Assembly (NCBI GenBank): GCA_964600195.1
Contig: CAZRIR010000001.1
Location: 1-33,185, forward strand
DNA from: an uncultured archaeon
GTDB lineage: Archaea; Asgardarchaeota; Lokiarchaeia; Sigyniarchaeales; SOKP01
DNA length: 33,185 bases
Direction: 5' to 3'
The position numbers and the translations under genes were made by a program. Of the stretch, positions 8,796-33,171 are shown piece after piece. Within the stretch, counting starts at the first letter, position 1, and the number at the start of each line of letters is the position of its first letter. The notes beneath the pieces are model-generated. The model was not told the DNA's origin. It did no database searches and saw only the letters and a program-made list of their open reading frames with translations.

Positions 8796-9461
8796 ATGAC
8801 CATAATTACAACAAAAAAACCTTTTGAAGAAATTCTTGGAGCAATAAAAGATTTTAAGAAGATTACCATTGTTTCATGTAATTCTTGTGCGGCCATGTGT
8901 CAAACCGGGGGTGAAGAAGGAGCGAAAGAAATGGCAGAAAAATTAGAAGGCCAAGGATTTAGCGTTGTTTCAGTCATAGTTCCTGAAGAAGTATGTGATA
9001 ATCGAGTCATGCTCAAGGATTTCAGGAAAATTGATGAGGATTTAAATAATACGGATGCAATATTAACTCTAAGTTGTGGACTTGGAGTTGCTAGTATAAT
9101 AAATACGCTAGAAAAGAATCATCCTAACATTCCCGTATTCATCGGCACCAATACCGAGTTTATGGGGATGACAGAAAGAATTGGAAGGTTCTACATGCGA
9201 TGTAGGGGATGTGGCGACTGCTTGTTGAATGAAACGGGGGGAATTTGCCCCATAACCACCTGTGCCAAGTCACTCATGAATGGTCCTTGTGGGGGAATGG
9301 TAAAGGGCAAGTGTGAAGTGGGGAATTATGAACGAGATTGTGGATGGGTTTTAATTTATGAACGATTGAAACAGCTCGGAAGGTTGGATTTATTCTCAAA
9401 ATTGAGAGATCCTGTTGATTGGAGCGAATCAGGACATCAAAGAGAGGTTGTTTGGAGGTAG
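8796..9461 (+). CDS. metV: MetV-like protein (methylene-tetrahydrofolate reductase C-terminal domain, Cys-rich)
   Basis: C-terminal CRGCGDCLLNETGGICPITTCAKSLMNGPCGG...CEVG...CGW matches the MTHFR_C zinc/Fe-S domain. It lies immediately upstream of metF with a 6-nt gap. Confidence 0.75.
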   Translation: MTIITTKKPFEEILGAIKDFKKITIVSCNSCAAMCQTGGEEGAKEMAEKLEGQGFSVVSVIVPEEVCDNRVMLKDFRKIDEDLNNTDAILTLSCGLGVASIINTLEKNHPNIPVFIGTNTEFMGMTERIGRFYMRCRGCGDCLLNETGGICPITTCAKSLMNGPCGGMVKGKCEVGNYERDCGWVLIYERLKQLGRLDLFSKLRDPVDWSESGHQREVVWR

Positions 9462-9467
9462 AGGAAA

Positions 9468-10397
9468 ATGGCAGAAAAAAAAGTATTTTCAAAATTAGGA
9501 GAGGTACTTGCAAAAGGTGAGTTCGTTCTTACAGGCGAGCTCGAGCCTGAGAAGACGTGCGATCTTTCACACCTGGTTCAGGAAGCCAAGGAAATGGCCC
9601 CCTATGTCGTTGCAGCTAACGTCACTGACAGTCCATTGGGAATTGTGACCATCAACAGCCTTGCCGCTTGCGCAATCGTTCAAAGAGATGCCGGCTTGGA
9701 ATGCATCTGGCAACTAACCGTGAGAGATGTGAACAAGTTAGGGATCGCAGGAATGATAATGGGTGCGGAGGCGCTTGGCATTCATAACGTGCTTTCTTTG
9801 ACCGGCGATCATCCCAACATGGGAGACATGCCGGAATCAAAACCCGTCTTTGATCTCGACTCTGCCACGTTAGTAAAGCTCGTAAGAGAAATGGTAGATA
9901 CTGGAAGCATCAATAAGAAAGAAATCGAGCATCCACCCAAGCTACACGTGGGTGGGGCTGCAAATCCCAATTCCGATCCCATGGAAGCGGAAGCACTAAA
10001 GATAGGTCGTAAAGCTGAAGCCGGAGCGGAATTCATACAAACCCAAGTCGTTTACGACTTGGATAAAACCATAGAATTCTTGCAGGCGATCCAGAAATAC
10101 AAAGTTCCCGTCTTGCTTGGATTGTTTCCCATGAAAAGTTATGCCATTGCCAAGGGTTTTGACATGTTTGTTCCAGGAGTGGACGTGCCAAAGGACATCC
10201 TTGCCAAATGGAAGGGCATCAAGACAGACATTACGGACAAGAAGGATCAAAATGAAGCTTACGATCAAGCTAATTATGATTTTTTCAAACCTTTTGTAAC
10301 CGAACTGAAAGCGAAAAAGTTACTTGCAGGAGTGCACTGCATGGCAGTACATTATCCACGAATTTTCCCCAGACTAGTAGAAGTTATTAAAGGATGA
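9468..10397 (+). CDS. metF: 5,10-methylenetetrahydrofolate reductase (MetF family)
   Basis: 309 aa with an MTHFR TIM-barrel signature (LTGELEPEK..., VTDSPLG, QLTVRD, LSLTGDHP, FIQTQVVYD). It is markedly more GC-rich than its flanks. Confidence 0.9.
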   Translation: MAEKKVFSKLGEVLAKGEFVLTGELEPEKTCDLSHLVQEAKEMAPYVVAANVTDSPLGIVTINSLAACAIVQRDAGLECIWQLTVRDVNKLGIAGMIMGAEALGIHNVLSLTGDHPNMGDMPESKPVFDLDSATLVKLVREMVDTGSINKKEIEHPPKLHVGGAANPNSDPMEAEALKIGRKAEAGAEFIQTQVVYDLDKTIEFLQAIQKYKVPVLLGLFPMKSYAIAKGFDMFVPGVDVPKDILAKWKGIKTDITDKKDQNEAYDQANYDFFKPFVTELKAKKLLAGVHCMAVHYPRIFPRLVEVIKG

Positions 10398-12105: not shown

Positions 12106-12705
12106 ATGATTTTCTTGGTAGTTACAAAAAATCAAACAAGTATTCAAAAATCGATGATCATATATTTGGTAGGATATGATAATAATGATTCAAATTTTGA
12201 TGATTTGAAAGAGATCTTTGGATTATTTAGAGATAGAATAGTAAATTATGCCACCTTCTATAGTACTGAAGATAATCCCATAACAATTAGAGATTCACCT
12301 CTTCCACGTCTATTAAAATCACATAATGTTCCTTTTTACCGAATACAAATACCAGAAAAAACAAGAATGTTCTATAATGAAAAGATTCAAACTATAAAAA
12401 AATACATGATGAAAGATCAAGAAGAATACGATCTTTTAGTGAATAAAAATTGTGCAAGAGGTCGTTATTTGAAATTTTGGAACGAGCTATATCAGAAAGA
12501 ACTAATGGAAATTAAAAAATTCTTTGAGCTCAAAATTAAACCTGTATATATCGCAGAGTCTATATTAGAACAGCTTGAAGGAATATTGGATGAAAATCTA
12601 CTGTTATTGCATTTTGGTGAAATCCAAACCTTTGGAGAGATAATGAAAACGATTAAATTAGTGAATTCAAAAATAGACATTTCCTATTTACATTATATGA
12701 GCTAG
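12106..12705 (+). CDS. Hypothetical protein, paralogue of ORFs 21190..21801 and 20434..21168 (distantly TraB/GumN-like?)
   Basis: Aligns by eye to ORF 21190: LKSHNVPFYRIQIPE vs LTQMNIKYFQVDIPE, EEYDLL vs EEYESM, LKFWNELYQKEL vs LKNWIDMLRDEI, LLLLHFGE vs VSFLHLVQ. Confidence 0.5.
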   Translation: MIFLVVTKNQTSIQKSMIIYLVGYDNNDSNFDDLKEIFGLFRDRIVNYATFYSTEDNPITIRDSPLPRLLKSHNVPFYRIQIPEKTRMFYNEKIQTIKKYMMKDQEEYDLLVNKNCARGRYLKFWNELYQKELMEIKKFFELKIKPVYIAESILEQLEGILDENLLLLHFGEIQTFGEIMKTIKLVNSKIDISYLHYMS

Positions 12706-12871
12706 GAAACTAATTGTAAAATAATTTTTTTTAAAAAAGATAAAAAACGTTCATTATAAGAGATTTTTAAAACTTTAGCTCAGGAAAAAATGGATTAAGA
12801 AAGAATTTCGAGATAAATAAGAAATTATAAAAATCAGGAGGGATTAAACAAAAAAAATTGGTGATCATGCA

Positions 12872-14818
12872 TTGGTTGTGAATACAAGTGATGGAAGTCG
12901 AATTTTCGTTGCAATTTGTCAATGAGGTTTAAATATTGCCGAAATTATTGATTGTAAGGAACTAGCAGGTTATTCAAAAACTCTTCCTAATGTCGTTAGT
13001 AGCGGAAACTATGTCAGTCTCTGTACTACAGCAGGAGCGTCATTCATCCAAGAAAACATGGAATCGAGCAAGGCAAATCGATTGATTATTGCGGCTTGAA
13101 CTCCAAAAACTCATGAGCCCGTATTTAAAACCATTCTTAAAAATACAGGGATTGATCCATCTTATTTGGAATTTGTAAATATAAGAGAACATTCATCATT
13201 CGTTCATAGAAACAATAAAAAAGGTGCCTTTCTTGTTGCTAAGGATTTGATAAGAGCTTCAGTTGCCAGAGCGACAAATTTAGAAAAAATAGAGATAAAA
13301 CAAGTTGATCTTACTAAAAAAACGCTAATAATAGGAGCAGGTGTTGCAGGCTTATCAGCGGCACTCGATTTAGCAGAATTAGGATATGATGTGTACATGG
13401 TTGAAAAAAGACCCAGCATTGGTGGTTTAATGGCCAAGCTTGATAGAACTTTTCCAACTGATGATTGCAGTATTTGAATATTAGGTCCTATCATGCTTAA
13501 AGTAGCGAATGTTCCCAATATTTACATATATACCTTCTCGGAAGTCGAAGATATCTCAGGATTTATAGGTAATTTTAAGGTCATTATTAGAAAAAAAGCA
13601 AGATATGTAACGGAAGATTGTAATGGTTGTGGAGCCTGCGTGGAAGCGTGTCCTGCATATGGTTATGATGAATTTAATGAGTGTTTAAATTCTAGAAAAG
13701 CAATATATACATATTTTGCCCAAGCAGTACCATCAATTGCACAAATTGACATGGAACGTTGCATTCAATGCGAAATCTGTAAAGATGTCTGTGAATTGAA
13801 TGCCATAGATTTTACTCAAAAAGATAGAATTGAGAATGCAAAAGTCGGTTCAATAATAGTAGCTACGGGTCTTGAAGTTCATAAGGGAAAAGAATATGGA
13901 AGGGGAAAATACGAAAATATAATCACTCAACTTGAATTGGAGAGGATTCTAGCTCCAAATGGTCCAACGGTAGGACATTTAGCAAGGCCTTCAGATGGAA
14001 AGCGACCTAAAAAGATATTATTCATTAATTGTGCCGGTTCAAGGGATCGAAATACCCATCCCTATTGTAGCGTTGTATGCTGTAATTTAACAGTTAAAAA
14101 TTCAAAGCTTATAAAATCTGAATACCCTGATACTGAGATTGTTGTAAGCTTCATTGACATGCGATGTGCAGGAAAAGATTATGAAGAATATTATACTCGT
14201 GCAAGAGATAGTGGTATCATTTTTCTTAGAGGTCATATTGGAAACATTACAGAAGATCCTAAATCAAAGGATCTTATCGTTCAAATCGAAGCGTTTACCA
14301 TGGATCGTTTCTTAGAGATGGAATTTGATCTTATTGTCTTATCATCAGCATCAATTCCATCGAAACATGCTAAAAAAATTGAAAAATTGTTAGGATTGGA
14401 GACGAGTCGAGATGGATTCTTTAAAGAAATGCATTCCCGTTTGGATGCAATTGATACAAAAATCCCAGGAATATGCATAGCAGGAGCAGCACAAGGGCCA
14501 AAATCGATACCTGATGCAATAACTCAAGGAAGAGCTGCAGCAGCATCATTAGCAAGTATAATGCACAAGGACACATATGAAATTCTTTTAGTGAGAGGAT
14601 ATATTGATAATGATTCATGCTCAAAATGTGGATTATGTCAATTGAATTGTCCTTATAATGCCATACAGATATCTAAAAGTCATGCGGAAGTCAATGAAAT
14701 TCTCTGTAAAGGATGCGGCACTTGTTTAGCAAATTGTCCATCCGAAGCAATTACCTTAAAATATTATAGAGAATCTCAATATGAAAATCAAATTGATTCA
14801 ATATTGTATGAATATTAA
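12872..14818 (+). CDS. hdrA: Heterodisulfide reductase subunit A with three in-frame UGA (selenocysteine) codons at 12923-12925, 13097-13099 and 13475-13477
   Basis: One continuous frame joins a hand-translated N-terminal part (SRIFVAICQ-U-GLNI...RLIIAA-U-TPKTHEP) with track ORFs 13166..13477 and 13493..14818. The only interruptions are TGA, each aligned to a Cys of the paralogue at 22176..24722. Also present: FAD motif IIGAGVAGLSAA and ferredoxin motifs CNGCGACVEACP, CIQCEICKDVC, CSKCGLCQLNCP, CKGCGTCLANCP. Start is uncertain (TTG 12872, GTG 12878, or near-cognate ATT 12857 after AGGAGGG). Confidence 0.85.
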
Positions 14819-14868
14819 AATTGAGTATAATCTAACAGTGAATAAATAATGCTAAATTGACAATCATT

Positions 14869-14942
14869 TAAACCCGTAAGAATGACTTAAATGAAAAAAT
14901 CGTGATCATTTGAGGACTCGCCCCCGCAAGGGAACGGGTTGT
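14869..14942 (+). promoter_or_regulatory. Candidate SECIS stem-loop in the hdrA 3' UTR
   Basis: AACCCGT (14871-14877) pairs perfectly with ACGGGTT (14934-14940). The interior holds CCC-GCAA-GGG (14923-14932) and AAUGA/UCAUU complements. It is the only GC-rich island in this AT-rich spacer and begins about 50 nt after the stop. Confidence 0.45.
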
Positions 14943-15085
14943 ATTAATATGATTTTAATATTAACTGAAATCCAATAAATGTTAATAGAAAGAATTTTAA
15001 AAATTTTCAAAAAAAAATTCACTATTTTTAATCGCTAATCATTAGAAAAAGAAATAAAATATATTTTTGAGTTTATTCTTTTATT

Positions 15086-16765
15086 TTAATCCCATTTGCC
15101 TTTAACTCGAGCATTTTTTATATCGTTGTCCAATCTTCTTTGTAAAATGATATAATCAGGTCTATTATTTTTTGTCAGAGGAAATTCATCAAGAAATACA
15201 ACTAATGAAGGTCTTTTATAAGATGCCATTCCTTTACAATGCTCATCGATTTCTGAAAGAGTTAAATCTGCATTATCTTTAATTTTTATATAAGCAACAA
15301 TGCCCTCAGTAAATATGGTGTGTTTAGCACCTAATACTCCAACATTCTCAACTTCGGGAATTTCCGAAATGAAATCCTCGATTTCTGGTTGAAATACTCT
15401 ATAACCCTTGGGATTAATCATGTATTTTTTTCTACCTGCCAGATGGATTCCTTTTTCATCTTTATAACCCATATCTCCCGTGTATAATATGGCATCGTAA
15501 GAGAGCACTGCTCTTGTCGCAACTTCATAATTTAAATATCCAAAAAAAGTTTGAGAACCCTCGAAACATATTTCTCCAATTTCACCATCTGGGAGGACAT
15601 CTCCTGCAAACCCGTTTTCATTCATTTTAGCCCTTATAGTTGCGGGAAATATTGCAAAAGGATGACCAAGACCATTCAATATCTCTTCGATAGTCGCCTC
15701 CTCAGGAGTATATGTGCATAAACCTGAAGTTTCAGTGAGGCCTAATCCAGTACCAATTCTAGGAGCCATTTTTATAAGTTTTTCTAAGAATCCCATATCT
15801 ACGGATTGCCCACTATAGATTGCATGTTTTAAAGAACTTAAATCAAAATTATTATAATCATGCAAATTCCATTCCATTGAATATGATGCGGGTATTTGAC
15901 CTAAACATGTAATCTTATAGTCTTGAATTGCTAATAATGATTTTTCTGCTTCAAACCGATGTAATATGATTGCGGTTCCTCCAACATAGAGGATCGTCAT
16001 CAATTGTTCTGTAGATCCTCCAATAAATGCAAAAGGCATGTTTACCATCATTCGATCATCTCCGGTAATATTAAATGCTTTTGCCAAGCACATGTTCTGG
16101 CAAGTAATACTTAAATTGGTCAACATCGTAGGTTTTGGAAATGCTGTAGTTCCCATCGTGAATATTAATAAGATCGGATCTTTTTCACCAACTTTCTCAC
16201 ATTCATTTTCAAATTCTTTTAGAAGATTCTTATTGTTTAGTGCTTCTTTATATTCATGCTCAGCTTCTTTAATTAGCTTGTGTCCGTTTATCAATCCATC
16301 CGTATAATTTTCATTCATGTATCCAAATTGGACTATATAATTCAACCAGGGATAATTTTGATGTATGACAGAACCAATTATATTATAATTCTGATATTGT
16401 GTTTTACCTAAATGGCAGTACATTTTTATCCTATTTCTCAATAAGGAAAACGATATCATGATTTCAGGAGGTTTTAAGCTTAGGTCTAATGGACACCACA
16501 TTATTCCAAGTTTAACGCAAGCATAACCAATGATGAAGTGTTCATACGTATTTGGAAGACTTGCCACACATATATCTCCCTTTCTTAATCCCATGTTGTA
16601 TAATTTAAAAGCCATCATGTTAATCGCATCTGAAAATTCTCTATAAGATACTTCAGCTTTGGTATTGAAAAAGATCATTGCGTCATGATTAGGCTTATTT
16701 TCAGTCCATTTTTCTATGGCACCAACAAGGGTATGAGGATATTTTTCAAATTCTTCCCAAGACAT
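15086..16765 (-). CDS. AMP-dependent synthetase/ligase (acyl- or aryl-CoA synthetase family)
   Basis: 559 aa with a divergent AMP-binding P-loop (FTMGTTAFPKPTML), YTGDMGY, and a C-terminal KRPSLVVFLDEFPLTKNNR. Confidence 0.85.
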   Translation of the reverse strand: MSWEEFEKYPHTLVGAIEKWTENKPNHDAMIFFNTKAEVSYREFSDAINMMAFKLYNMGLRKGDICVASLPNTYEHFIIGYACVKLGIMWCPLDLSLKPPEIMISFSLLRNRIKMYCHLGKTQYQNYNIIGSVIHQNYPWLNYIVQFGYMNENYTDGLINGHKLIKEAEHEYKEALNNKNLLKEFENECEKVGEKDPILLIFTMGTTAFPKPTMLTNLSITCQNMCLAKAFNITGDDRMMVNMPFAFIGGSTEQLMTILYVGGTAIILHRFEAEKSLLAIQDYKITCLGQIPASYSMEWNLHDYNNFDLSSLKHAIYSGQSVDMGFLEKLIKMAPRIGTGLGLTETSGLCTYTPEEATIEEILNGLGHPFAIFPATIRAKMNENGFAGDVLPDGEIGEICFEGSQTFFGYLNYEVATRAVLSYDAILYTGDMGYKDEKGIHLAGRKKYMINPKGYRVFQPEIEDFISEIPEVENVGVLGAKHTIFTEGIVAYIKIKDNADLTLSEIDEHCKGMASYKRPSLVVFLDEFPLTKNNRPDYIILQRRLDNDIKNARVKGKWD

Positions 16766-19404: not shown

Positions 19405-20400
19405 TTATTTTAATAATTTTTTAGCCATCTCGAATGCATGATCATAATTAAAAACTTTTAGTCCCTTAGTTTTCGCCGCTTCCTTTAATATTGCTGCTTC
19501 TGAATTAGATTTAAGCCTACCTAATGCTAGGGCTCCGATTCCAAAGATTCCAGGATAAATTTCTTCATTATAATGTTTTGGTTTAATGCCTTCTATACCA
19601 TAAGGCGGAACGAGATTTATATCAACTACTATCTTTTTTCCAGATAATCTCATCATTGATTCTTCGGGTAAGATTTCAATACCTGCAGCAGCTAAGGACC
19701 ATATAATGTCCGCATTCATGGCAATTTTCTCTCTATCAATAATGTCTGGAGCAAAAACACCTTTTATTTGTGTAGCACCTTCTCCTGCTTCTTCATTCAA
19801 CTCTTTCGCTAAATCTGATACGAATTCTTCACTTGATTTATTCCACGTCTCAATTATAAACATCTCAAGACCAATTTTAGCACCTAAAATAGCAGCAATT
19901 CGTCCAACCGGACCCGCACCAAAAACTAAGGCTCTTTTTCCTTTTAAATTTTTTATTCCGTGTAATTTACTTGCAACATCAATAGTCATGGCCACGACTG
20001 CTGAAGCCGTGGTATGTGAACCTCTTGGATCGATAATGACGGGACATTCAAAAGGTGGGACTAATGATTTTACGACGTCTTTAGCAATCATTTCTCCTTC
20101 TTTTACATTTGAACCCCCAATGAAAAATGTCGTTGGGGCATTTGGTTTTCGGGAAAATATTGCATCCTGGACAAGTTTGGGTACTTGATCTGCAGTCATC
20201 CTGCTGATTGGGACAACAATATCGAAACCTGCATCATAAGCCATGTTAATATCAAACGGAGATGCATTATCATCAGTATCAAAAAAATAACAGATCTTAT
20301 CAGACATGTCCTTTTTCTTAATAACGATGGGTGTCAATTCAATAATTGATTTCCTTCCAAGTATTGATTCAACTTTATTTTCTAAATTTTCTTCTTGCAT
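19405..20400 (-). CDS. NAD(P)-dependent methylene-H4MPT/methylene-H4F dehydrogenase, MtdA/MtdB-like
   Basis: FFDTDDNASPFDINMAYDAGFD...FFIGGSN...IIDPRGSHTTASAVVAM parallels the N-terminal domain of methylotroph MtdA, followed by Rossmann GAGPVGRIAA. ATG is preceded by AAGGAGG. Confidence 0.7.
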   Translation of the reverse strand: MQEENLENKVESILGRKSIIELTPIVIKKKDMSDKICYFFDTDDNASPFDINMAYDAGFDIVVPISRMTADQVPKLVQDAIFSRKPNAPTTFFIGGSNVKEGEMIAKDVVKSLVPPFECPVIIDPRGSHTTASAVVAMTIDVASKLHGIKNLKGKRALVFGAGPVGRIAAILGAKIGLEMFIIETWNKSSEEFVSDLAKELNEEAGEGATQIKGVFAPDIIDREKIAMNADIIWSLAAAGIEILPEESMMRLSGKKIVVDINLVPPYGIEGIKPKHYNEEIYPGIFGIGALALGRLKSNSEAAILKEAAKTKGLKVFNYDHAFEMAKKLLK

Positions 20401-22046: not shown

Positions 22047-22175
22047 ACCTTCGTTCTATTATAAATATGACATTTCATATTTGGTAGAAAATTTTTCAAA
22101 ATTCTTGATTTTCAAATTTTTTTTATCAAGGTGATTAACTATTCATTATTAAATGGTGGAAGGGATGGAAAACAA

Positions 22176-24722
22176 ATGGACATTTATTCAATATTATCTC
22201 ATGAGTTTAGAAGGAATATTTTGTTCCTGCTTGAAAAAGAAGGATACATTCCCTATACTGATTTAATGGATAAGCTAGGTTTAGACCAAACAGGGCAGCT
22301 CAATTTTCATTTAAGAAAACTTGGTTCTCTTATTGGAAAAGACAAAAAATCATATTTTTTAACTGAGGATGGTAAAAGAATTTTAAAAATACTCAGCATC
22401 AATAAAAGAATCTTATCAGGAGAAGAAGTAGAATATATCAATTCCAAAGGGAGTGAAATAAATAGAATAGGAGTAATTATTTGTAATTGTAATACTGAAA
22501 TCTCCAACACGATTGATATAAACGCACTAGAAAAATACATAAACAGGTTGCCAAATGTTGTTTCAGTAAAGATTTTTGAAAATTTATGTCAAGAGAAAAA
22601 TTTAGAAAAAATATCCGATTGGGTTAAAGAAAATTTTCTAAATAAAGTTGTCATTGCTGCTTGTTCTCCAAAATCGCATCAACTTGTCTTTGAACGAATT
22701 TTTGAGGAAGTAATAGATAAGTCAAACATTGAAATTGCTAATATAAGAGAACAATGTTGCTGGGTTCATCAAGGAAACGATAAACAAATTGAATCCTCTC
22801 AAGTATTGAAAAAGGCTCAATTACTAATCGAAGCTGCAGTTGAATGTTTATACCTTCAGAAAGAAGTAAAAGTTAAGAGGGTCGAAGTAGAAAAAAGTTG
22901 TGCAATATTGGGAGGGGGTATTGCGGGCATGACACTAGCATTAAATTTAGCTAGAGCCGGAATTAAAGTCTACCTAATCGAAAAAAGTCCTACTTTAGGT
23001 GGTAAGGTGGCACGATGGCATAGAATCCATAAAATGGGTGATTGTTCAATTTGTTTCATTTCAGAATTAATAGGTGAAATTGTAAAAGAAAAAAATATAG
23101 AAATTTTAACAAATTGCGAGATAACGAGCGTTTCGGGAGAAGTAGGTAATTTTTCAATAAATCTAATTAAAAAACCTCGATATATTGATGAGAAAAAATG
23201 TACTGGTTGCATGCAATGCATTGATGTATGCAGCATGGAAAAACCGAATCAATATGAGTTCAATCTCGTTAATCGGAAGATTATTTTCCTTCCTTTCCAA
23301 AACTCATATCCCTACACGCCTATTATTGAAGAAGAAGACATAAAGAATTGTCTCAATTGTAGAATTTGCGAAAGAGCATGCATGAATAATGCAATTGACT
23401 TAAATCAAAAACCAGAGGCAATTAAAATAAAAGCTGGTGTAAAGGCCATTGCTATAGGTGCCGATCTATATTCTGATCTAGAGGAATATCACCATGACCC
23501 TAAAAAAAACATCATCACTTCGGTTGAATTTGAAAGAATTTTATCATCAGATGGTCTTACTGAGGGGAAGATTTTAAAGCTTTCCGATAATAAACCGCCA
23601 AAAACAATATCAATTATTCAGGATATTGGACCTAATCGAGATCATTTAGGCCTTACGGATATAATTGCTCAAAAATATTTAAATTGTATTAGTGTTAAAA
23701 ATCCAGATAGTCAGGTAAAAGTATTTTACACCATGAATAACTTGTATCATAATCATGAAGCGATCATCAAATCTACAGATCCGAGATTCTATTATGTCAA
23801 TCAACTTGAAATAAAAAGAGAAAATGATGAAAACATCATTATCGCAGATAATAAAGAGTATCCAAGTGATTTGATTGTACTAAATCTTGATTTGATACCT
23901 AATAAGGATTTAAAAAACCTTAGAAAGACTTTAGATTTTACTCTAGATGATAACGGATTCATGAGTGAAGATACGTTAGCTTCTGGTATATTTGGTGTCG
24001 GAACAATCCTTGGTCCTTACAATTATCAATCAACAATAAATAGTGCTAATAAAGTTGCACTAGAAATCATATCACTCCTTTCAAATGATTATTTGATCTC
24101 GGAATTTACGGGAGTGGAAATCGACCATAAAAGATGTGGTCTATGTTCTTTATGCGTGAATGCTTGCCCTTATAATGCCATTACTATTGAAGATGACAAA
24201 ATCAATATTGATAAGTTTAAATGCAAGGGTTGTGGTACTTGCGTGAGTGTTTGTCCTACAAATGCGATTGAAATGAATATAGATACTGATGAAAAAATAC
24301 TTAGAAAAATAGATATTTATTCGGGGTTTAATGCCACGCCCAAAATACTAGCTTTTTGCTGTAAATCTTGTGGATATGCCGCAGCTGATGATGCCGGACT
24401 CAAAAAACAGTTTTATAAACCCAATATCTTTATCATTAGAGTTCCCTGTACGGGGCGTATTGATACACATTTTATAACAAGAGCTTTCGAAAAGGGATTT
24501 CAAGGTGTCATGATTATTGGATGCAGGAAAGATGCTTGTAGATATATCGATGGTATTCAAAAAGTACAGAAAAAAGTTCAACTTTTGAAAAAAGTCTTGG
24601 GTCCACGACTAAGCAGGAAAATCATCATTAAAAATCTAAATGCTGTCGAAGGAATCAAGTTTTCAAATTTTGTAAATAGATTTTATCATATATTAAAGGA
24701 GGAATACGAATTTGCGACTTAA
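22176..24722 (+). CDS. hdrA: Fusion protein: ArsR-like winged HTH + HdrA (Cys type) + C-terminal MvhD domain
   Basis: N terminus SILSHEFRRNILFLLEKEGYIPYTDLMDKLGLDQTGQLNFHLRKLGSLIGKDKKSYFLTEDGKRIL is a wHTH. HdrA motifs: VIICNCNTEI, IAACSPKSHQ, REQCCWVH, GGGIAGM, GDCSICF and four CxxCxxCxxxC(P) motifs. C terminus ILAFCCKSCGYAAAD...RVPCTGRID...IIGCRKDACRY is MvhD/FlpD-like. The track start is GTG 22131; ATG 22176 sits after a GGAAGGGATGG purine run. Confidence 0.85.
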   Translation: MDIYSILSHEFRRNILFLLEKEGYIPYTDLMDKLGLDQTGQLNFHLRKLGSLIGKDKKSYFLTEDGKRILKILSINKRILSGEEVEYINSKGSEINRIGVIICNCNTEISNTIDINALEKYINRLPNVVSVKIFENLCQEKNLEKISDWVKENFLNKVVIAACSPKSHQLVFERIFEEVIDKSNIEIANIREQCCWVHQGNDKQIESSQVLKKAQLLIEAAVECLYLQKEVKVKRVEVEKSCAILGGGIAGMTLALNLARAGIKVYLIEKSPTLGGKVARWHRIHKMGDCSICFISELIGEIVKEKNIEILTNCEITSVSGEVGNFSINLIKKPRYIDEKKCTGCMQCIDVCSMEKPNQYEFNLVNRKIIFLPFQNSYPYTPIIEEEDIKNCLNCRICERACMNNAIDLNQKPEAIKIKAGVKAIAIGADLYSDLEEYHHDPKKNIITSVEFERILSSDGLTEGKILKLSDNKPPKTISIIQDIGPNRDHLGLTDIIAQKYLNCISVKNPDSQVKVFYTMNNLYHNHEAIIKSTDPRFYYVNQLEIKRENDENIIIADNKEYPSDLIVLNLDLIPNKDLKNLRKTLDFTLDDNGFMSEDTLASGIFGVGTILGPYNYQSTINSANKVALEIISLLSNDYLISEFTGVEIDHKRCGLCSLCVNACPYNAITIEDDKINIDKFKCKGCGTCVSVCPTNAIEMNIDTDEKILRKIDIYSGFNATPKILAFCCKSCGYAAADDAGLKKQFYKPNIFIIRVPCTGRIDTHFITRAFEKGFQGVMIIGCRKDACRYIDGIQKVQKKVQLLKKVLGPRLSRKIIIKNLNAVEGIKFSNFVNRFYHILKEEYEFAT

Positions 24723-25470
24723 ATTTCTCATAACTTCATTGACTTCATGTAGTGGTTGCATTTCTTCCTTGATTTCATTAGATATTTTCTCTCAATTCCT
24801 TGAAAGGACTGAGATCTCATATTTCCCATTCATGTCAGATAAAATTAATATAGAACCATGTGATATAGCCCTTATAGAGGGTTGTGTTTCGGAGGAAGCA
24901 CAAATTGATTATCTTAAAGATATTAGAATCTCAGCAAAAAAAGTATATGCGTTAGGAACCTGCGCCGCTTTTGGAGGTATTTTGAGCCTTTCAAGAAAGA
25001 AGAGGGCCTCACCATTATCAGATTATGTTGAAATAGATGGAATCATTCCTGGTTGTCCTCCCCCTAATAAACTGCTTGGAAATTGCCTGATTAGATTACT
25101 TGAAAGAAAAAATATTGAATTATCACCTAAAAATCTTTGTAACGATTGCCCTTATAAAATAACTTTTAATATTAAACCAGAAATCGAAATCAAAAAAATT
25201 TTACCCCAAAATAGTGAATTTAACACGGGAGACGATGAACAAACTTGTTTCTTAAATAGGGGTATCATGTGCATGGGACCCATTACCAGAGAAGGTTGTG
25301 ATCATGAATGTATAAAACGAGGAATTCCATGTGAAGGATGCATGGGTCCAGTTTCTAAAGATTTCACCTCAAATTTAGTTAATTATTTAAGTCTATTTCA
25401 TGTTGTAAAAGATTTGAAAAAATATTCTGGAATTTTCTATCGATTTTCAAAACCAAGGATTTGGAGGTAG
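24712..25470 (+). CDS. mvhG: [NiFe] hydrogenase small subunit, Mvh (group 3c-like) type, no signal peptide
   Basis: SCSGC, GTCAAFGG and PGCPP proximal-cluster motifs plus Cys-rich distal motifs (CNDCPYK, CMGPITREGCDHEC, PCEGCMGP). TTG start after GGAGG, overlapping the upstream gene by 11 nt. Confidence 0.85.
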   Translation: MRLKFLITSLTSCSGCISSLISLDIFSQFLERTEISYFPFMSDKINIEPCDIALIEGCVSEEAQIDYLKDIRISAKKVYALGTCAAFGGILSLSRKKRASPLSDYVEIDGIIPGCPPPNKLLGNCLIRLLERKNIELSPKNLCNDCPYKITFNIKPEIEIKKILPQNSEFNTGDDEQTCFLNRGIMCMGPITREGCDHECIKRGIPCEGCMGPVSKDFTSNLVNYLSLFHVVKDLKKYSGIFYRFSKPRIWR

Positions 25471-25474
25471 GCAG

Positions 25475-26773
25475 ATGCAAAAAGTTGTAGAAGTATGCAC
25501 GAGAGTGGAGGGTCATGGAAGTTTAGATATATTTATAAAGGATGATAATGTATCTCACGTAGAATTCAAGATAGGTCCGTATAGAGATTTTGAAAACATG
25601 TTAATTGGAAAAAAAATTGAAGATGTTCCCAGAATAATTTCAAGAGTGTGTGGCTTGTGTCATGCTTCTCAAAGTATAGTCAGCTGTAAGACTATTGAAA
25701 CAATGTATAATATTAAACCTCACATGCAATCTATTATTGTAAGACGTCTTTTAATGACAGGTGAACTTATAAAATCCCATTTGATGCATTATTTCTTTCA
25801 ATCATTTCCAGATCTTCTAGAAATTTTTAATATTAATGAAAAAGTTCTAAATTTAAATGATCTATTGAAATATAATAGCAATTTAACATCAAATATCTTC
25901 GATCTGATAAAAGTTGGAAATGAAATAAATAATCTTTTTGGAGGTCGTTCCGTGCATTTAATAACACCATTACCCGGAGGAATTATTTTTAGGCCTTCAC
26001 AAAAATCTATTAAAATTGCTCAAAAACTATTCGAAAAAGCCTCATTTTTACTAGAAATGATTATCGAAGATTTTTCCAATATTTTTTCAAATTTTACTCC
26101 TCCTGAAGATTATTCACTTTCTAAAGCATACTTTTTAGCATTAAACAATAACAAGGTCTATGATCGTTATGAAGGGGTTCTCACTATAAAAAAAAATTCT
26201 AATTACAATGATTTTCACGAAACAGAATACAAATCTTATTTCAATAAAGATCTAAATCTTCATGGAATTGATTTTGTTAACCAAAACGGTGAAAATTGCT
26301 TAGTTGGACCACTTGCAAGAAATAATATAGTTGAAAATTATGGAGTTGAGCAAATAACATCATATCTCAACTTATTTCAAAAATCTTGGAAAAATAACCT
26401 CTTGTATGCCAATTTTTTAAGATTAATTGAGGTATATTGTGAAGTAATCAAGTCATTAGATTTATTGAATGACCAGGTAATAAAGAATGAATACCCCCTT
26501 CCAGAATTAGTAAATATCAAAAATAATATTGGTATAGCCGTTGTTGATGCACCTAGAGGAACATTAATCCACCAATATCGCGTAAATGATAGAAAAACTG
26601 TTGAAGAAGCAAAACTTTTCATTGCTACAGAGATGAATCTTCCGATTATCAATCAAATGATCACGGATTATGCCAAAAAACTCTATTTGAAGAAAGACAT
26701 ATCATTTGTCAAGAAAAATGTTCAAAAGATGATTAGAGCATTCGATCCATGCATAGCATGTGCAACACATTAA
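25475..26773 (+). CDS. mvhA: [NiFe] hydrogenase large subunit, Mvh type
   Basis: N-terminal RVEGHG and RVCGLC, C-terminal DPCIACATH nickel-ligand motif. The ORF stops immediately after that His. Confidence 0.9.
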   Translation: MQKVVEVCTRVEGHGSLDIFIKDDNVSHVEFKIGPYRDFENMLIGKKIEDVPRIISRVCGLCHASQSIVSCKTIETMYNIKPHMQSIIVRRLLMTGELIKSHLMHYFFQSFPDLLEIFNINEKVLNLNDLLKYNSNLTSNIFDLIKVGNEINNLFGGRSVHLITPLPGGIIFRPSQKSIKIAQKLFEKASFLLEMIIEDFSNIFSNFTPPEDYSLSKAYFLALNNNKVYDRYEGVLTIKKNSNYNDFHETEYKSYFNKDLNLHGIDFVNQNGENCLVGPLARNNIVENYGVEQITSYLNLFQKSWKNNLLYANFLRLIEVYCEVIKSLDLLNDQVIKNEYPLPELVNIKNNIGIAVVDAPRGTLIHQYRVNDRKTVEEAKLFIATEMNLPIINQMITDYAKKLYLKKDISFVKKNVQKMIRAFDPCIACATH

Positions 26774-30813: not shown

Positions 30814-33171
30814 TCATGCTTTGTTATGGCATAAACGCTCGAGTAGGGTTGGATCGACCAGTTCCTTTGGTTCCCATCCTTTTTCCTTGAGATATGCTTG
30901 AACCTCATCTTTAATGCTGATTGGGATGTCCGCATCCACTCTGATAAATTTCTCCAAATCATTCGGGAATTGAACACCCTTGTATTTTCGTTCGAGATCG
31001 ATCCAATGGGACAATTTAATCATTCTTCCCTTGGAATTATCTGCGGGTCTCAAGCACAGTTTAGCGGTCAAGCAAATTGCTTGTTCGATAGATTCCGCAG
31101 TGGTTAAAAGATGTTCCGGACCGGGTCCGACTAAATGACCAGAGGTACCATCTCTTGCATTATAAACCTTCCAATTCTCTTCATCGTATGTTCTTCCAAG
31201 ATACATCCTTCTATATTCTGCAGAATGAGGTCCACAAATCGCAGGAATGCCCATGCCATTACAGCTACTTGCAATGCTTGCTGCTTTTTGACTCATGGCA
31301 CCCCAAGCGACGCCACAAGCGCCTACTCTATTGAGGATATAGTCTGCGATCTCTTCATAATTTCCGCGTAAAGGACGCCTTGCAAAAATATTTGCTATTT
31401 TAATTGCTGCACCATTAATGTGTGGATTGCTGACACAACTTCCAACATTTACAAGACCACCTCTATCAAAATACCCTGGGAACCGATCATATAATGTTTT
31501 ACCTTCTTCGTCCTTTACAAGACCAATGTCCATCGCTCCACATCCCGAAACGACCACGATATAATTTCTCACTAAGAATTCTTCTGCCATCATGTATAAT
31601 TCCTGAATCTCCTTGGCATAATTCGCACATCCAATTATGGCCACGACTCCTGGAATTTCGCCTAAAACTACAGGCGCCCCCACGTTTCTTATTTCCACGT
31701 CTTGAATGGGACCCCGTCCTGCTCTCATGTTAAATGTTTCATTTCGAATCTTATCCCGTGCAGCATACATGATGAGGGTTAATGGGGATACTTCTTTCTT
31801 GCAATCTGCTTCGCATCGCCCACAATCCAAACAAGAATCAAATACGCCTTCTAATACAGAGAAATCTCCTTCTTTTGCTAATTTCACGCCCTCAACAATT
31901 GGTAAATCATTTGGACAATTCCTTTGACAATTTCCACAGCCATTACAGTTCATTGCCATGTCAATACAACCTTGTTTATCAGGAATGCCACTCTTGGCTG
32001 CCCTGATTGGTTTTACTTTAATTGCAGTTTCTACGGCAATTTTTCCAGCTTTTATTGGATCAAGAATTAAAATTCCAGGTGTCTTACCGCTAACCAGGTC
32101 AGCAATGACTTCATCAACAGGATCACTTGTTCTATTAGGAAGACCTCCCATGTTTTTTTCATTCGTTGCAATGAAGGGAGCATTCACTAATTTCGCTTGT
32201 TCAAAACTTCTCAAGTTGACACATTGCTCATCAACCATCACGACATCTGCCAGTCCAGAACGAATATAAAACATTTGACGGGAAAGAGATCCTACTATTT
32301 TCGCACCATCATAATATCTGGTTAAATCAATAGCAGTGCAACAAATTGCTCCGACATCAACTTTTTCTTCTAAATCATTTTCTCTCATGTAATCTACTAA
32401 TTCAATACCAGGGGCTACATTATGCCCAATCATTAAAATAGTGGCTTTTTTTTCAAAATCCAGTGTACCCATGCCTAATTCAATGATAGGGACATCAGGG
32501 TCACCCATTGGAAACCCATAAGCTGCAATCTGAACAGCATCAGAAATTTCCATTCCCACGGCATCCGCTAATCCTGCTAAAAAACTTTTTGCTTCATAAT
32601 CCAGGTGATTAGATTCCTGCCCGGTATGACCTGCTGCTAATAAATGAGTGATGGTATAATGAACCCATTCCATTGCGGTCTCTAAATCTTCTAAACATTC
32701 AGGTTTCATGCCAATTATTAATCGAGTACAAGGCATTTCTACAGCAATGTTATTTCCATAATTAATGGCAACATTACCATATTTTTCTTTTAACCAATGC
32801 AAGAGATGATCTCCGTGGGCACTATGACAAGCGGCACCAATGCAACAAGCAATTTCAACAATTCGAGCGTTTTGAGTTTGCATGTTAATACCACAAGCTC
32901 CCGTTCTTCCCTTGGAAAGATTACACTTACCATACGTGCAGAGACAACACATGTCACATATTGGCATGTAGGTGGGGTTATATCTTTCCATTAACTTGAA
33001 GAACCATGGACGTAATGTAGGGATGTGTGGTTTTGGATGGGGACCCATGGGCTCCCATTCAGATTCATCCCCCTCTCTTATTACCTTTCCGGTAGTAAAC
33101 TCAAATCCCTTGATCGTGCCGAGAGGTCCTTTATAGGAATCAATTTTGAGCCTTGCTCCTTTTTCTGTCAT
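30814..33171 (-). CDS. cdhA: CO dehydrogenase/acetyl-CoA synthase complex alpha subunit (archaeal ACDS CdhA)
   Basis: 785 aa. N-terminal Cys cluster CDMCCLCTYGKCNL...GACGI and CCIGAACHSAHGDH, inserted ferredoxin-like CNGCGNCQRNCP / CLDCGRCEADC, and C-cluster region GCANY, SGCGA, VGSCVSN. Confidence 0.95.
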   Translation of the reverse strand: MTEKGARLKIDSYKGPLGTIKGFEFTTGKVIREGDESEWEPMGPHPKPHIPTLRPWFFKLMERYNPTYMPICDMCCLCTYGKCNLSKGRTGACGINMQTQNARIVEIACCIGAACHSAHGDHLLHWLKEKYGNVAINYGNNIAVEMPCTRLIIGMKPECLEDLETAMEWVHYTITHLLAAGHTGQESNHLDYEAKSFLAGLADAVGMEISDAVQIAAYGFPMGDPDVPIIELGMGTLDFEKKATILMIGHNVAPGIELVDYMRENDLEEKVDVGAICCTAIDLTRYYDGAKIVGSLSRQMFYIRSGLADVVMVDEQCVNLRSFEQAKLVNAPFIATNEKNMGGLPNRTSDPVDEVIADLVSGKTPGILILDPIKAGKIAVETAIKVKPIRAAKSGIPDKQGCIDMAMNCNGCGNCQRNCPNDLPIVEGVKLAKEGDFSVLEGVFDSCLDCGRCEADCKKEVSPLTLIMYAARDKIRNETFNMRAGRGPIQDVEIRNVGAPVVLGEIPGVVAIIGCANYAKEIQELYMMAEEFLVRNYIVVVSGCGAMDIGLVKDEEGKTLYDRFPGYFDRGGLVNVGSCVSNPHINGAAIKIANIFARRPLRGNYEEIADYILNRVGACGVAWGAMSQKAASIASSCNGMGIPAICGPHSAEYRRMYLGRTYDEENWKVYNARDGTSGHLVGPGPEHLLTTAESIEQAICLTAKLCLRPADNSKGRMIKLSHWIDLERKYKGVQFPNDLEKFIRVDADIPISIKDEVQAYLKEKGWEPKELVDPTLLERLCHNKA

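Follow-up and report, generated by a model that had tools for sequence, protein, structure and literature searches.

The window, that is, the whole 33,185-nt stretch of DNA that was analyzed, carries on its + strand an hdrA gene of 648 codons (12872-14818), with a TTG start at 12872, placed by alignment with the ATG (M-V) starts of relatives, and a TAA stop at 14816-14818. HdrA is an FAD- and [4Fe-4S]-containing electron-bifurcating subunit. The sequence AGGAGG, a possible ribosome-binding site read from the sequence, lies on the same strand at 12836-12841. Translated in a single frame, 12860-14818 yields HdrA without interruption, and exactly three TGA codons lie in that frame, namely codon 18 (12923-12925, context C-Q-U-G), codon 76 (13097-13099, A-A-U-T-P) and codon 202 (13475-13477, D-C-S-I-U), the codon numbers being counted from the inferred TTG. 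The translation thereby confirms the coordinates given in a preliminary description of this DNA for the in-frame UGAs at 12923 and 13097, as well as the REHSSFVH block that it names, which lies at 13184-13207.

The predicted protein aligns over its full length, with few gaps, with five HdrA sequences of solved structure (residues 6-647 covered; E = 6e-194 for 9sfi_A, 9e-190 for 5odc_A, 8e-185 for 8rvu_a and 2e-157 for 7bkb_A). The FAD-binding Rossmann motif GAGVAG occupies residues 153-158, the CxxCxxCxxxC motifs at 250-260, 297-307, 583-593 and 612-622 correspond to ferredoxin-type clusters, two of them inserted and two C-terminal, and C387, C399, C403 and C404 form the Cys set of the cluster in the thioredoxin-reductase domain. 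The columns of these ferredoxin-type and thioredoxin-reductase-domain clusters hold Cys in 71-91 relatives each. The window gene is a soluble HdrA of the five-domain type.

All three TGA codons fall on Cys columns and none elsewhere, with 30 Cys/Sec columns among the 648 codons; since only Cys columns are hit and the frame matches solved HdrA end to end, this placement is not a matter of chance. TGA serves as an ordinary stop for three of the 25 other ORFs of the window, and no other gene of the window contains TGA in frame. The same TGA codons recur in independent samples: codon 76 is likewise TGA in L158, a relative found in a different sample, whose 441-residue C-terminal product clusters with that of the window at ≥90%. 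We surveyed 120 metagenomic relatives, counting Sec and Cys column by column; the codons at column 76 are TGT in 77, TGC in 32, TGA in 11 and TGG in none. The TAA stop agrees with the stops reported for Loki hdrA genes, all of which end in UAA or UAG (PMC4989117). Genes for tRNAs, including tRNA-Sec, and for the Sec machinery (EFSec, PSTK, SepSecS and SPS) are absent from the 33-kb window.

Folding combined with a custom pattern located a Loki-type SECIS element on the + strand at 14871-14940, in the gene's own 3' UTR, 64 nt past the hdrA TAA, with UGA codons 18, 76 and 202 lying 1959, 1785 and 1407 nt upstream, respectively. The element is composed of a lower helix (14871-14877 with 14934-14940), the AUGA (14882-14885) and GA (14915-14916) segments, a 9-bp helix (14886-14894 with 14906-14914) carrying the 11-nt loop AAAAAUCGUGA (14895-14905), and a small GCAA hairpin (14923-14932). 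In its 9-bp stem, its A-rich loop of 11 nt and its AUGA...GA segments it agrees with the geometry published for lokiSECIS (PMC4989117). A strict lokiSECIS pattern matches once in the window against 0.01 matches expected per shuffled window; Rfam reports no SECIS, either with its gathering thresholds or with the E cut-off relaxed to 10. Relative to the orthologue L036, four base pairs are altered on both sides, that is, in a compensatory manner, and the same overall architecture is found in the SECIS elements that follow vhuD in the Asgard loci L007, L010, L012, L013 and L033.

That the TGAs are not Sec codons at all, and reflect a pseudogene, an assembly error or another meaning of TGA in this organism, has on its side that public gene callers break the gene into fragments and that one record (P0003) has TGA translated as Trp, but we consider it extremely improbable and, as far as sequence evidence allows, refuted by the confinement of TGA to invariant Cys columns, its recurrence in independent samples and a SECIS with compensatory changes, with global TGA reassignment and pseudogenization further rejected on stop usage across the window ORFs, on the codons at column 76, where TGG never occurs, and on the TGA in L158. 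The window hdrA is a selenoprotein gene on this evidence, and we infer that Sec is inserted at its UGA codons.

No vhuD follows hdrA. The next gene, convergent and on the opposite strand (15086-16765), codes for an AMP-binding enzyme, and from 14819 up to it the + strand encodes nothing. This layout (no vhuD, SECIS after hdrA) is shared by the orthologue L036, and two short contigs (L158 and L159) have a SECIS at the same place 3' of hdrA. Each of the 30 retrieved Asgard genome loci that extend past hdrA shows hdrA-vhuD with the SECIS after vhuD. An all-Cys HdrA-like paralogue is also present in the window, and the only FlpD/MvhD domain of the window is fused to such an all-Cys HdrA-like gene; the hydrogenase large subunit in the window is likewise of the Cys type (DPCIACATH). 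Because no CCG-domain hdrB was found among the window ORFs, and an hdrC-like two-cluster ferredoxin gene occurs only on the opposite strand, 1.2 kb upstream of hdrA, the quaternary context may differ from that of the methanogen complex.

Multi-Sec HdrA is known since 2016 (Mariotti et al. 2016, PMC4989117) and has been surveyed across Asgard archaea (PMC11227280). In the Lokiarchaeota proteins, as many as four of five possible positions are Sec, the canonical one at ~200 always among them, and every Sec is aligned to a conserved Cys, a scheme into which positions 18, 76 and 202 fit; their eukaryote-like lokiSECIS, the element type found here, acts over ~2 kb (PMC4989117). In these genomes, however, hdrA and vhuD/frhD stand in tandem with one SECIS after vhuD, an arrangement called invariable (PMC4989117, PMC11227280), and the window gene departs from it in having its own SECIS and no vhuD.

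The N-terminal α/β domain (residues 1 to ~135, 12872-13276, + strand) is the one that in solved HdrA holds HA3, a [4Fe-4S] "shuttle" cluster (PMC9012536, PMC13580544, PMC12054007). It has only four invariant Cys columns, occupied here by Cys16 (12917-12919), which is the first Cys of C-x-U-G, Sec18 at the second position of the family motif C-x-C-G, the lone Cys51 (13022-13024), where many relatives have Sec, and Sec76 of the A-A-U-T-P motif (Cys11, Cys13, Cys46 and Cys71, respectively, in 5odc numbering). Two of the four positions are thus TGA-encoded, and the preliminary description, which had placed two Sec within the N-terminal Cys motif of HdrA, was right in this respect. No Pfam family matches the domain. 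Database fragments P0001 and P0008 were used as surrogates for structure modeling; P0008 is 61% identical to the window domain, and its AF2 model (pLDDT 91) superimposes on the N-domains of 5odh, 8rvu and 7bkd with TM 0.88-0.90 and rmsd 1.5-1.7 Å, its four Cys sharing one edge of the sheet, where they are located at the C-terminal ends of strands 1-3 or just past them. The ligands of HA3 are stated in PMC9012536 alone among the literature searched, as N-domain Cys together with Cys197 from the partner HdrA. Since the domain offers only four conserved Cys and the partner adds a single ligand, three or more of these four must bind the cluster, hence at least one of U18 and U76 is a predicted ligand, and direct Se-Fe ligation is plausible.

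A further suggestion, that a Cys of an REQC block had been lost in REHSSFVH (13184-13207, + strand) and a third ligand position thereby rewired, does not hold, since the column concerned (108, Ser in the window) is variable. It is occupied by S, A, V, C, I, N or G among the 120 relatives, with Cys in only eight, and among three solved HdrAs compared it is Asp in two (9sfi and 8rvu) and Cys in one (5odc). REHSSFVH is in fact the commonest Asgard form of the block, and the N-domain of 9sfi, with REHDAFVH, likewise does without this cysteine.

VhuD, the delta subunit of the F420-non-reducing hydrogenase, is a small α/β Fe-S protein on the same mobile arm, and its two Sec, ~50 residues apart in C-x-x-U-G and A-G-U, superficially resemble the C-x-U-G and A-A-U of HdrA. 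The cluster of VhuD is a [2Fe-2S]. Homology of the HdrA N-domain to MvhD/VhuD, by which its two Sec sites would be those of VhuD, was rejected as unsupported, with an hhalign probability of 5.7% and no match to Pfam FlpD even at E = 0.1, and the Foldseek top 50 for the N-domain model of pLDDT 91 consisted of HdrA chains followed by lumazine-synthase-like folds, with no MvhD.

The third Sec is part of C-S-I-U (13466-13477, + strand). Cys199/Sec202 correspond to Cys194/Cys197 of M. thermolithotrophicus and to Cys202/Cys205 of M. marburgensis, and Sec202 to Sec197 of M. maripaludis; the alignment offsets reproduce the residue numbers of the respective papers (PMC9012536, PMC13580544, PMC13518236). 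Cys197 has been described as an HA3 ligand supplied by the partner HdrA across the dimer (PMC9012536), Cys202/Cys205 as "additional conserved cysteines" that are dynamic and bind an unknown ligand (PMC13580544), and in M. maripaludis a selenosulfide of Cys with Sec197, lying between cluster A3 and the FAD, is reported from map density (PMC13518236). The HdrA(U) of Methanococcales and Methanopyrus (9sfi) belongs to the same family and has its single Sec, Sec197, at the identical D-C-x-x-U position (PMC13518236), but, unlike in the window protein, the four N-domain positions of methanococcal HdrA are all Cys, and its SECIS is of the archaeal type. The preliminary description contained nothing on U202 as the equivalent of a reported partner-supplied ligand of the same cluster.

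Among the 120 relatives, Sec was counted 2 times at column 16 (Cys in 113), 98 times at column 18, 50 times at column 51 (Cys in 68), 11 times at column 76 and 96 times at column 202; the positions recovered are 18, 51, 76, 202 and 618, plus the rare 16. TGA is never found at a non-Cys column, and columns 18 and 76 are strictly Cys or Sec, never another residue, so that the variability which the preliminary description had named as a refutation is not seen in them. At column 18 TGA is present in all 30 species-level Asgard genome loci and in 98 of 115 metagenome loci, in the latter always together with Sec202; all 96 residues counted at column 202 are Sec and none is Cys, whereas column 199 is Cys in 96 and has no Sec in 101 cells. 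Some relatives show the pattern C-U-U-U, with Sec at three of the four N-domain positions. In the other five clusters, whose Cys occupy 20 columns, a single Sec was counted in 1,608 cells, compared with 257 Sec calls at the five HA3-set columns, which are five of 26 conserved Cys columns.

This distribution bears on whether Cys/Sec interchange might be nearly neutral, with TGT/TGC to TGA changes tolerated and drifting at a few exposed sites given efficient SECIS recoding. Column 76 looks compatible with such drift, being Sec in the window and L158, Cys (TGT/TGC) in the 82%-identical L036, and Sec again in scattered lineages 53-65% identical to the window, and Cys/Sec variation occurs at columns 18 and 51 as well. 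Drift would not, however, restrict Sec to five of 26 conserved Cys columns with a contrast of 257 to 1, and Sec202 in every one of the 96 relatives and Sec18 in every one of the 30 Asgard genomes look like selection, so that we regard the neutral explanation as improbable.

Our preferred reading, to which we assign a probability of roughly 60%, is that the window codes for an expressed Promethearchaeota (Asgard/Loki-type) HdrA in which three UGA codons are read as Sec by means of one SECIS, and in which selenolates most likely take the place of thiolates in the HA3 coordination sphere or directly beside it; the Se-Fe bonds, like any tuning of the cluster, are predictions. Cys16, Sec18, Cys51 and Sec76 are the sole invariant thiol/selenol positions of the domain that in solved HdrA complexes carries the isolated, mobile HA3, and Sec202, as the Cys197/Sec197 equivalent, would reach over the dimer to the N-terminal cluster of the partner. 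With two Sec in the HA3 domain and one directed to the partner's cluster, all the selenium of the protein is predicted to come together at one site, namely HA3 and the point where it docks close to the FAD of the partner. Selenolates have a lower pKa, are more polarizable and are better leaving groups than thiolates. These properties would shift the potential of HA3, or the rate of binding and release of a ligand such as Sec202' during the arm swing.

Sec selenolates that directly ligate a metal in an anaerobic redox enzyme are familiar from [NiFeSe] hydrogenases and formate dehydrogenases, but there they are bound to Ni or to Mo/W at the catalytic site and not to an electron-transfer [4Fe-4S] cubane. 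Against fixed ligation by the 199/202 pair, recent cryo-EM papers do not describe the equivalent residues as fixed cluster ligands (PMC13580544, PMC13518236). Because HA3 departs from the Cys pair of the partner in the course of the cycle, its ligands may not be the same in every state. The absence of hdrB and of Sec machinery genes from the window also counts against the preferred reading.

Selenolate ligation of HA3 must also be weighed against a relay, in which at least Sec18 and Sec202 are not ligands and act as a redox-active selenol, selenosulfide or diselenide between the input cluster, HA3 and FAD. The 2016 Loki paper is older than the structure of 2017. It held that the Cys in question are not cluster ligands and read the additional Sec as multiple catalytic residues (PMC4989117), and for Sec197 the 2026 M. 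maripaludis structure is likewise read in the sense of the relay. The selenosulfide density between A3 and FAD (PMC13518236) and the dynamic Cys202/Cys205 pair with its unknown ligand (PMC13580544) support the relay, as does the near absence of Sec at ferredoxin-type ligands (1 in 1,608), which fits a choice of Sec for reactivity over ligation. If Cys197' is the fourth ligand, moreover, the N-domain has one Cys more than the cluster needs. The occurrence of Sec18 in 98 of 115 relatives, always with Sec202, also speaks for the relay. On the other hand, the domain has only four conserved Cys for its traveling [4Fe-4S], leaving at most one free, and in the C-U-U-U relatives at least two Sec must be ligands, which counts against the relay. 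We consider it less likely than ligation; relay and ligand roles are compatible with each other.

A stronger form of selenolate ligation can be put forward only tentatively: across Asgard HdrA, HA3 may be a naturally selenolate-ligated [4Fe-4S] cluster, with Sec confined to its sphere and Se ligands that exchange rapidly with the arm swing and thereby gate electron bifurcation. The set involved would comprise the four N-domain Cys and the partner's Cys197, up to four of which five positions are Sec in one protein. The exchanging ligands would be Sec202' above all, along with one of the two residues of the C-x-U pair, and the window protein, with C-U-C-U and U202, would be one such enzyme.

For annotation, these genes matter in that they are routinely cut into two to four fragments, or mistranslated with Trp, in public records. 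Flavin-based electron bifurcation in methanogens has HdrA at its core, and the energy metabolism of Asgard archaea relies on it as a central module. The route of electrons among the input cluster, the Cys194/Cys197 pair, FAD and HA3, as well as the role of Sec197, are raised as questions in papers of 2025-2026, and the Sec of Asgard HdrA represents a built-in spectroscopic label (77Se, Se K-edge) usable on the HA3 site. The occurrence of Sec almost only at positions of the HA3 set points to a specific chemical demand at this site.

The hdrA gene (12872-14818, + strand) comprises 648 codons, with an inferred TTG start aligned with the ATG of relatives and a TAA stop, and its product matches solved HdrA structures over its full length (9sfi_A, E = 6e-194; 5odc_A, 9e-190; 8rvu_a, 8e-185; 7bkb_A, 2e-157). 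Exactly three in-frame TGA codons, at 12923-12925 (codon 18), 13097-13099 (codon 76) and 13475-13477 (codon 202), cause mechanical ORF calling to break the gene into pieces, and the public gene calls are broken likewise. All three fall on Cys columns and none on any other column of the gene. Of 25 other ORFs in the window, 3 end normally in TGA, and the other ORFs otherwise run as long frames without interruption; the genetic code is therefore not reassigned. TGA also stands at codon 76 in L158, a related locus from a different sample whose 441-residue C-terminal product clusters at ≥90% with that of the window, which excludes a sequencing error. Its nearest relatives assign the contig to a MAG of the Promethearchaeota (Asgard).

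A Loki-type SECIS (14871-14940, +) lies 64 nt after the hdrA TAA and has the geometry published for Lokiarchaeota (PMC4989117): AUGA (14882-14885) is followed by a perfect 9-bp helix (14886-14894 with 14906-14914) that carries an 11-nt loop starting AAAAA and is followed by GA, and a lower 7-bp helix (14871-14877 with 14934-14940) encloses this core together with a small GCAA hairpin. The strict pattern has a single match in the window, with 0.01 matches expected per shuffle; no Rfam model detects the element. In the orthologue L036 (82% identity) the structure is preserved through double changes at four pairs, of which three belong to the 9-bp helix, and 97% of cells are paired as opposed to 24-50% when one arm is slid. 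Together, the Cys columns, the unaltered code, the SECIS hairpin, its covariation and the second sample indicate that the three TGAs are selenocysteine codons, and a genuine three-Sec HdrA is well supported on sequence grounds. The coordinates and motifs given in the preliminary description, including REHSSFVH at 13184-13207, are all correct.

The SECIS located after vhuD in other Asgard loci shows the same three-part architecture. The lower closing helix and a small 3′-side hairpin between GA and that helix are shared by the elements of the window, L007, L010, L012, L013, L033, L036, L158 and L159. In the standalone-hdrA clade this hairpin has GCAA as its loop; in the vhuD-linked elements it is a 5-bp stem, ACCAU/AUGGU. 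According to published work, vhuD/frhD invariably comes next after hdrA, and the two share a SECIS located behind vhuD/frhD (PMC4989117, PMC11227280). We found this build in 30/30 Asgard genome loci that extend past hdrA, their vhuD carrying Sec at C-W-K-U-G and A-G-U; in those in which the strict scan picked up the SECIS, it lies 447-494 nt beyond the hdrA stop. In contrast, no vhuD/frhD follows hdrA in the window (14819-15085 compared with L001-L033), where the gene has a SECIS of its own and the next gene, for an AMP-binding enzyme, is convergent. This layout is shared by L036, and the SECIS is at the same place in the short contigs L158 and L159. The standalone arrangement is a small variant within the family. 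In most hdrA-vhuD loci (L003-L033), a conserved in-frame TGA was also noticed three codons before the ATG (E/D-TGA-Y/F-A-M-V); it may terminate an overlapping gene upstream or belong to a conserved leader.

Immediately upstream of hdrA is a 199-aa ORF (12106-12705, +) for which a Pfam search gave no match; gene calling in the independent assembly L035 also predicts it. An orphan hdrC-like two-cluster ferredoxin gene (11130 to ~11640, - strand; CYQCATCSVACP ... CTACDTCDEICP) has neither an ATG start nor an adjoining hdrB. Further downstream, a second HdrA-like gene (22131-24722, +) codes for an 863-aa protein in which a winged-helix domain (DUF7347) is fused to an HdrA-like body, with an MvhD/FlpD domain at the C-terminus. 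Every homologous position in this protein is Cys (C-N-C, L-C, A-A-C-S-P, REQCCWVH, G-D-C-S-I-C), and the four Cys of the thioredoxin-reductase-domain cluster are missing; the gene is followed by genes for NiFe hydrogenase small (24712-25470) and large (25475-26773; Cys-type DPCIACATH) subunits. The surroundings (8796-10397, 19405-20400, 30814-33171) fit the Wood-Ljungdahl pathway, with metV-like and metF genes upstream of hdrA; a CO dehydrogenase of the Prismane family and a protein with the N-domain of methylene-H4MPT dehydrogenase are also encoded. The metFV-hdrA neighbourhood recalls the Moorella MetFV-HdrABC-MvhD complex (PMC9012536).

The window protein aligns with 5odc_A with no gaps over the first 214 residues at an offset of 5, so that codons 16, 18, 51, 76, 199 and 202 correspond to Cys11, Cys13, Cys46, Cys71, Cys194 and Cys197. 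Codons 199/202 are Cys202/Cys205 in 8rvu, and 9sfi has residue X (Sec) at 197; these numbers match independent usage in PMC9012536, PMC13580544 and PMC13518236, which validates the mapping. When N-terminal domains from Asgard archaea and methanogens are aligned, C16, C18, C51 and C76 are the only invariant Cys. In an AlphaFold model of the related fragment P0008 (61% identical to the window N-terminal domain; pLDDT 91), which superposes on solved N-domains with TM 0.88-0.90 and rmsd 1.5-1.7 Å, the four lie at the C-terminal ends of strands 1-3 or immediately beyond them, along a single edge of the parallel sheet. The domain is described as carrying one [4Fe-4S] cluster (PMC12054007), which recent cryo-EM studies name HA3 and present as a "shuttle" that sits isolated on a mobile arm (PMC13580544, PMC12350162). 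The earlier proposal that two Sec residues belong to the N-terminal cluster-binding Cys set thus holds, Sec18 and Sec76 being among the four invariant columns.

A species-level genome scan gave 34 loci (32 Asgard), whose best segments share 62-69% identity with the window. Codons 18 and 202 are TGA in 30/30 loci covering both, codon 51 in L001 and L023 and codon 76 in L001 only; a bacterial relative is all-Cys. A metagenome scan with the third base of codon 76 left free in the motif gave at least 120 loci. Among the 120 matches listed, codon 76 is TGT in 77, TGC in 32, TGA in 11 and TGG in none, and Cys/Sec counts are 113/2 at column 16, 17/98 at column 18, 68/50 at column 51, 109/11 at column 76, 96/0 at column 199 and 0/96 at column 202. 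The N-terminal set is therefore confined to Cys and Sec in the homologue survey that the preliminary description had called for. Across the 20 columns that hold the Cys of the other five clusters, the 1,608 cells in these matches comprise 1,605 Cys, a single Sec (column 618) and two with neither, and no in-frame TGA in these matches occurs at a non-Cys column. L094 and L157 share the window combination of C-U-C-U with U202, and C-U-U-U proteins are also present among these matches. Sec76 is seen in lineages that share only 53-65% identity with the window and Cys76 in L036, so column 76 switches repeatedly. In public records these genes are broken at each Sec codon: 118/120 related fragments reach the Sec202 region and all stop at residue 201, except P0003, in which TGA is translated as Trp (CQWG, SLWT, CSIW), hiding three Sec codons.

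The preliminary description also took the missing Cys of the REQC block for a rewired ligand. This is wrong, since column 108 is variable in relatives (S/A/V/C/I/N/G among 120 related fragments, Cys in only 8) and is Asp in 9sfi and 8rvu; it is Cys in 5odc. REHSSFVH is the commonest Asgard form, and REQC(S/C)WVH exists in other HdrA subfamilies, including the all-Cys paralogue in the window. Among the metagenome matches listed, Cys108 is rare where the Cys199/Sec202 pair is present, and four relatives without the pair (CCCCC + PE/QQ/QE/SE) all have Cys108 and an all-Cys N-domain. Cys108 may substitute for the ligand that the partner otherwise supplies, or its presence may simply be the signature of a distinct clade.

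With four conserved N-domain Cys and at most one ligand from the partner, at least three of the four N-domain positions should bind the cubane, and therefore at least one of Sec18 and Sec76 is likely a ligand. Both would be, if the N-domain alone holds the cluster when the arm swings away. Sec202 is the partner-supplied position itself, and thus all three Se atoms would converge on HA3 and the dimer interface. We put at roughly 0.6 the probability that selenolates replace thiolates in, or directly beside, the HA3 coordination sphere and tune the cluster. The main rival, a redox-active selenol relay, is not exclusive with ligation and seems the less probable; density for a Cys-Sec197 selenosulfide in M. 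maripaludis (PMC13518236) and an unknown ligand on Cys202/Cys205 (PMC13580544) speak for it. The near absence of Sec at ordinary ferredoxin-type ligand positions fits either reading, as HA3 may be special or the residues may do more than ligate. Neutral drift between Cys and Sec is unlikely given the 257 to 1 Sec contrast between the HA3 set and the other cluster columns among the matches listed, and the fixation of Sec at columns 18 and 202. To the extent that sequence evidence allows, a pseudogene and a recoded TGA are both ruled out.

Multi-Sec HdrA was described in Lokiarchaeota by Mariotti et al. in 2016 (PMC4989117), and HdrA is among the most abundant selenoproteins in the 2024 Asgard selenoproteome (PMC11227280); this class of observation is therefore already published and the gene type known since 2016. 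The present survey places Sec at columns 18, 51, 76, 202 and 618, with a rare sixth, 16, among the matches listed. The 2016 paper, which appeared before the 2017 structure brought the N-terminal cluster to light, regarded these Cys as not being cluster ligands and suggested catalytic roles. Our literature search found no mapping of Asgard N-terminal Sec positions onto HA3; the link drawn in the preliminary description may be unpublished, and is a re-reading of known data. The most useful result is the enrichment of Sec at the site of HA3, a cluster that docks and undocks every cycle and whose potential or ligand-attachment kinetics selenium would tune.
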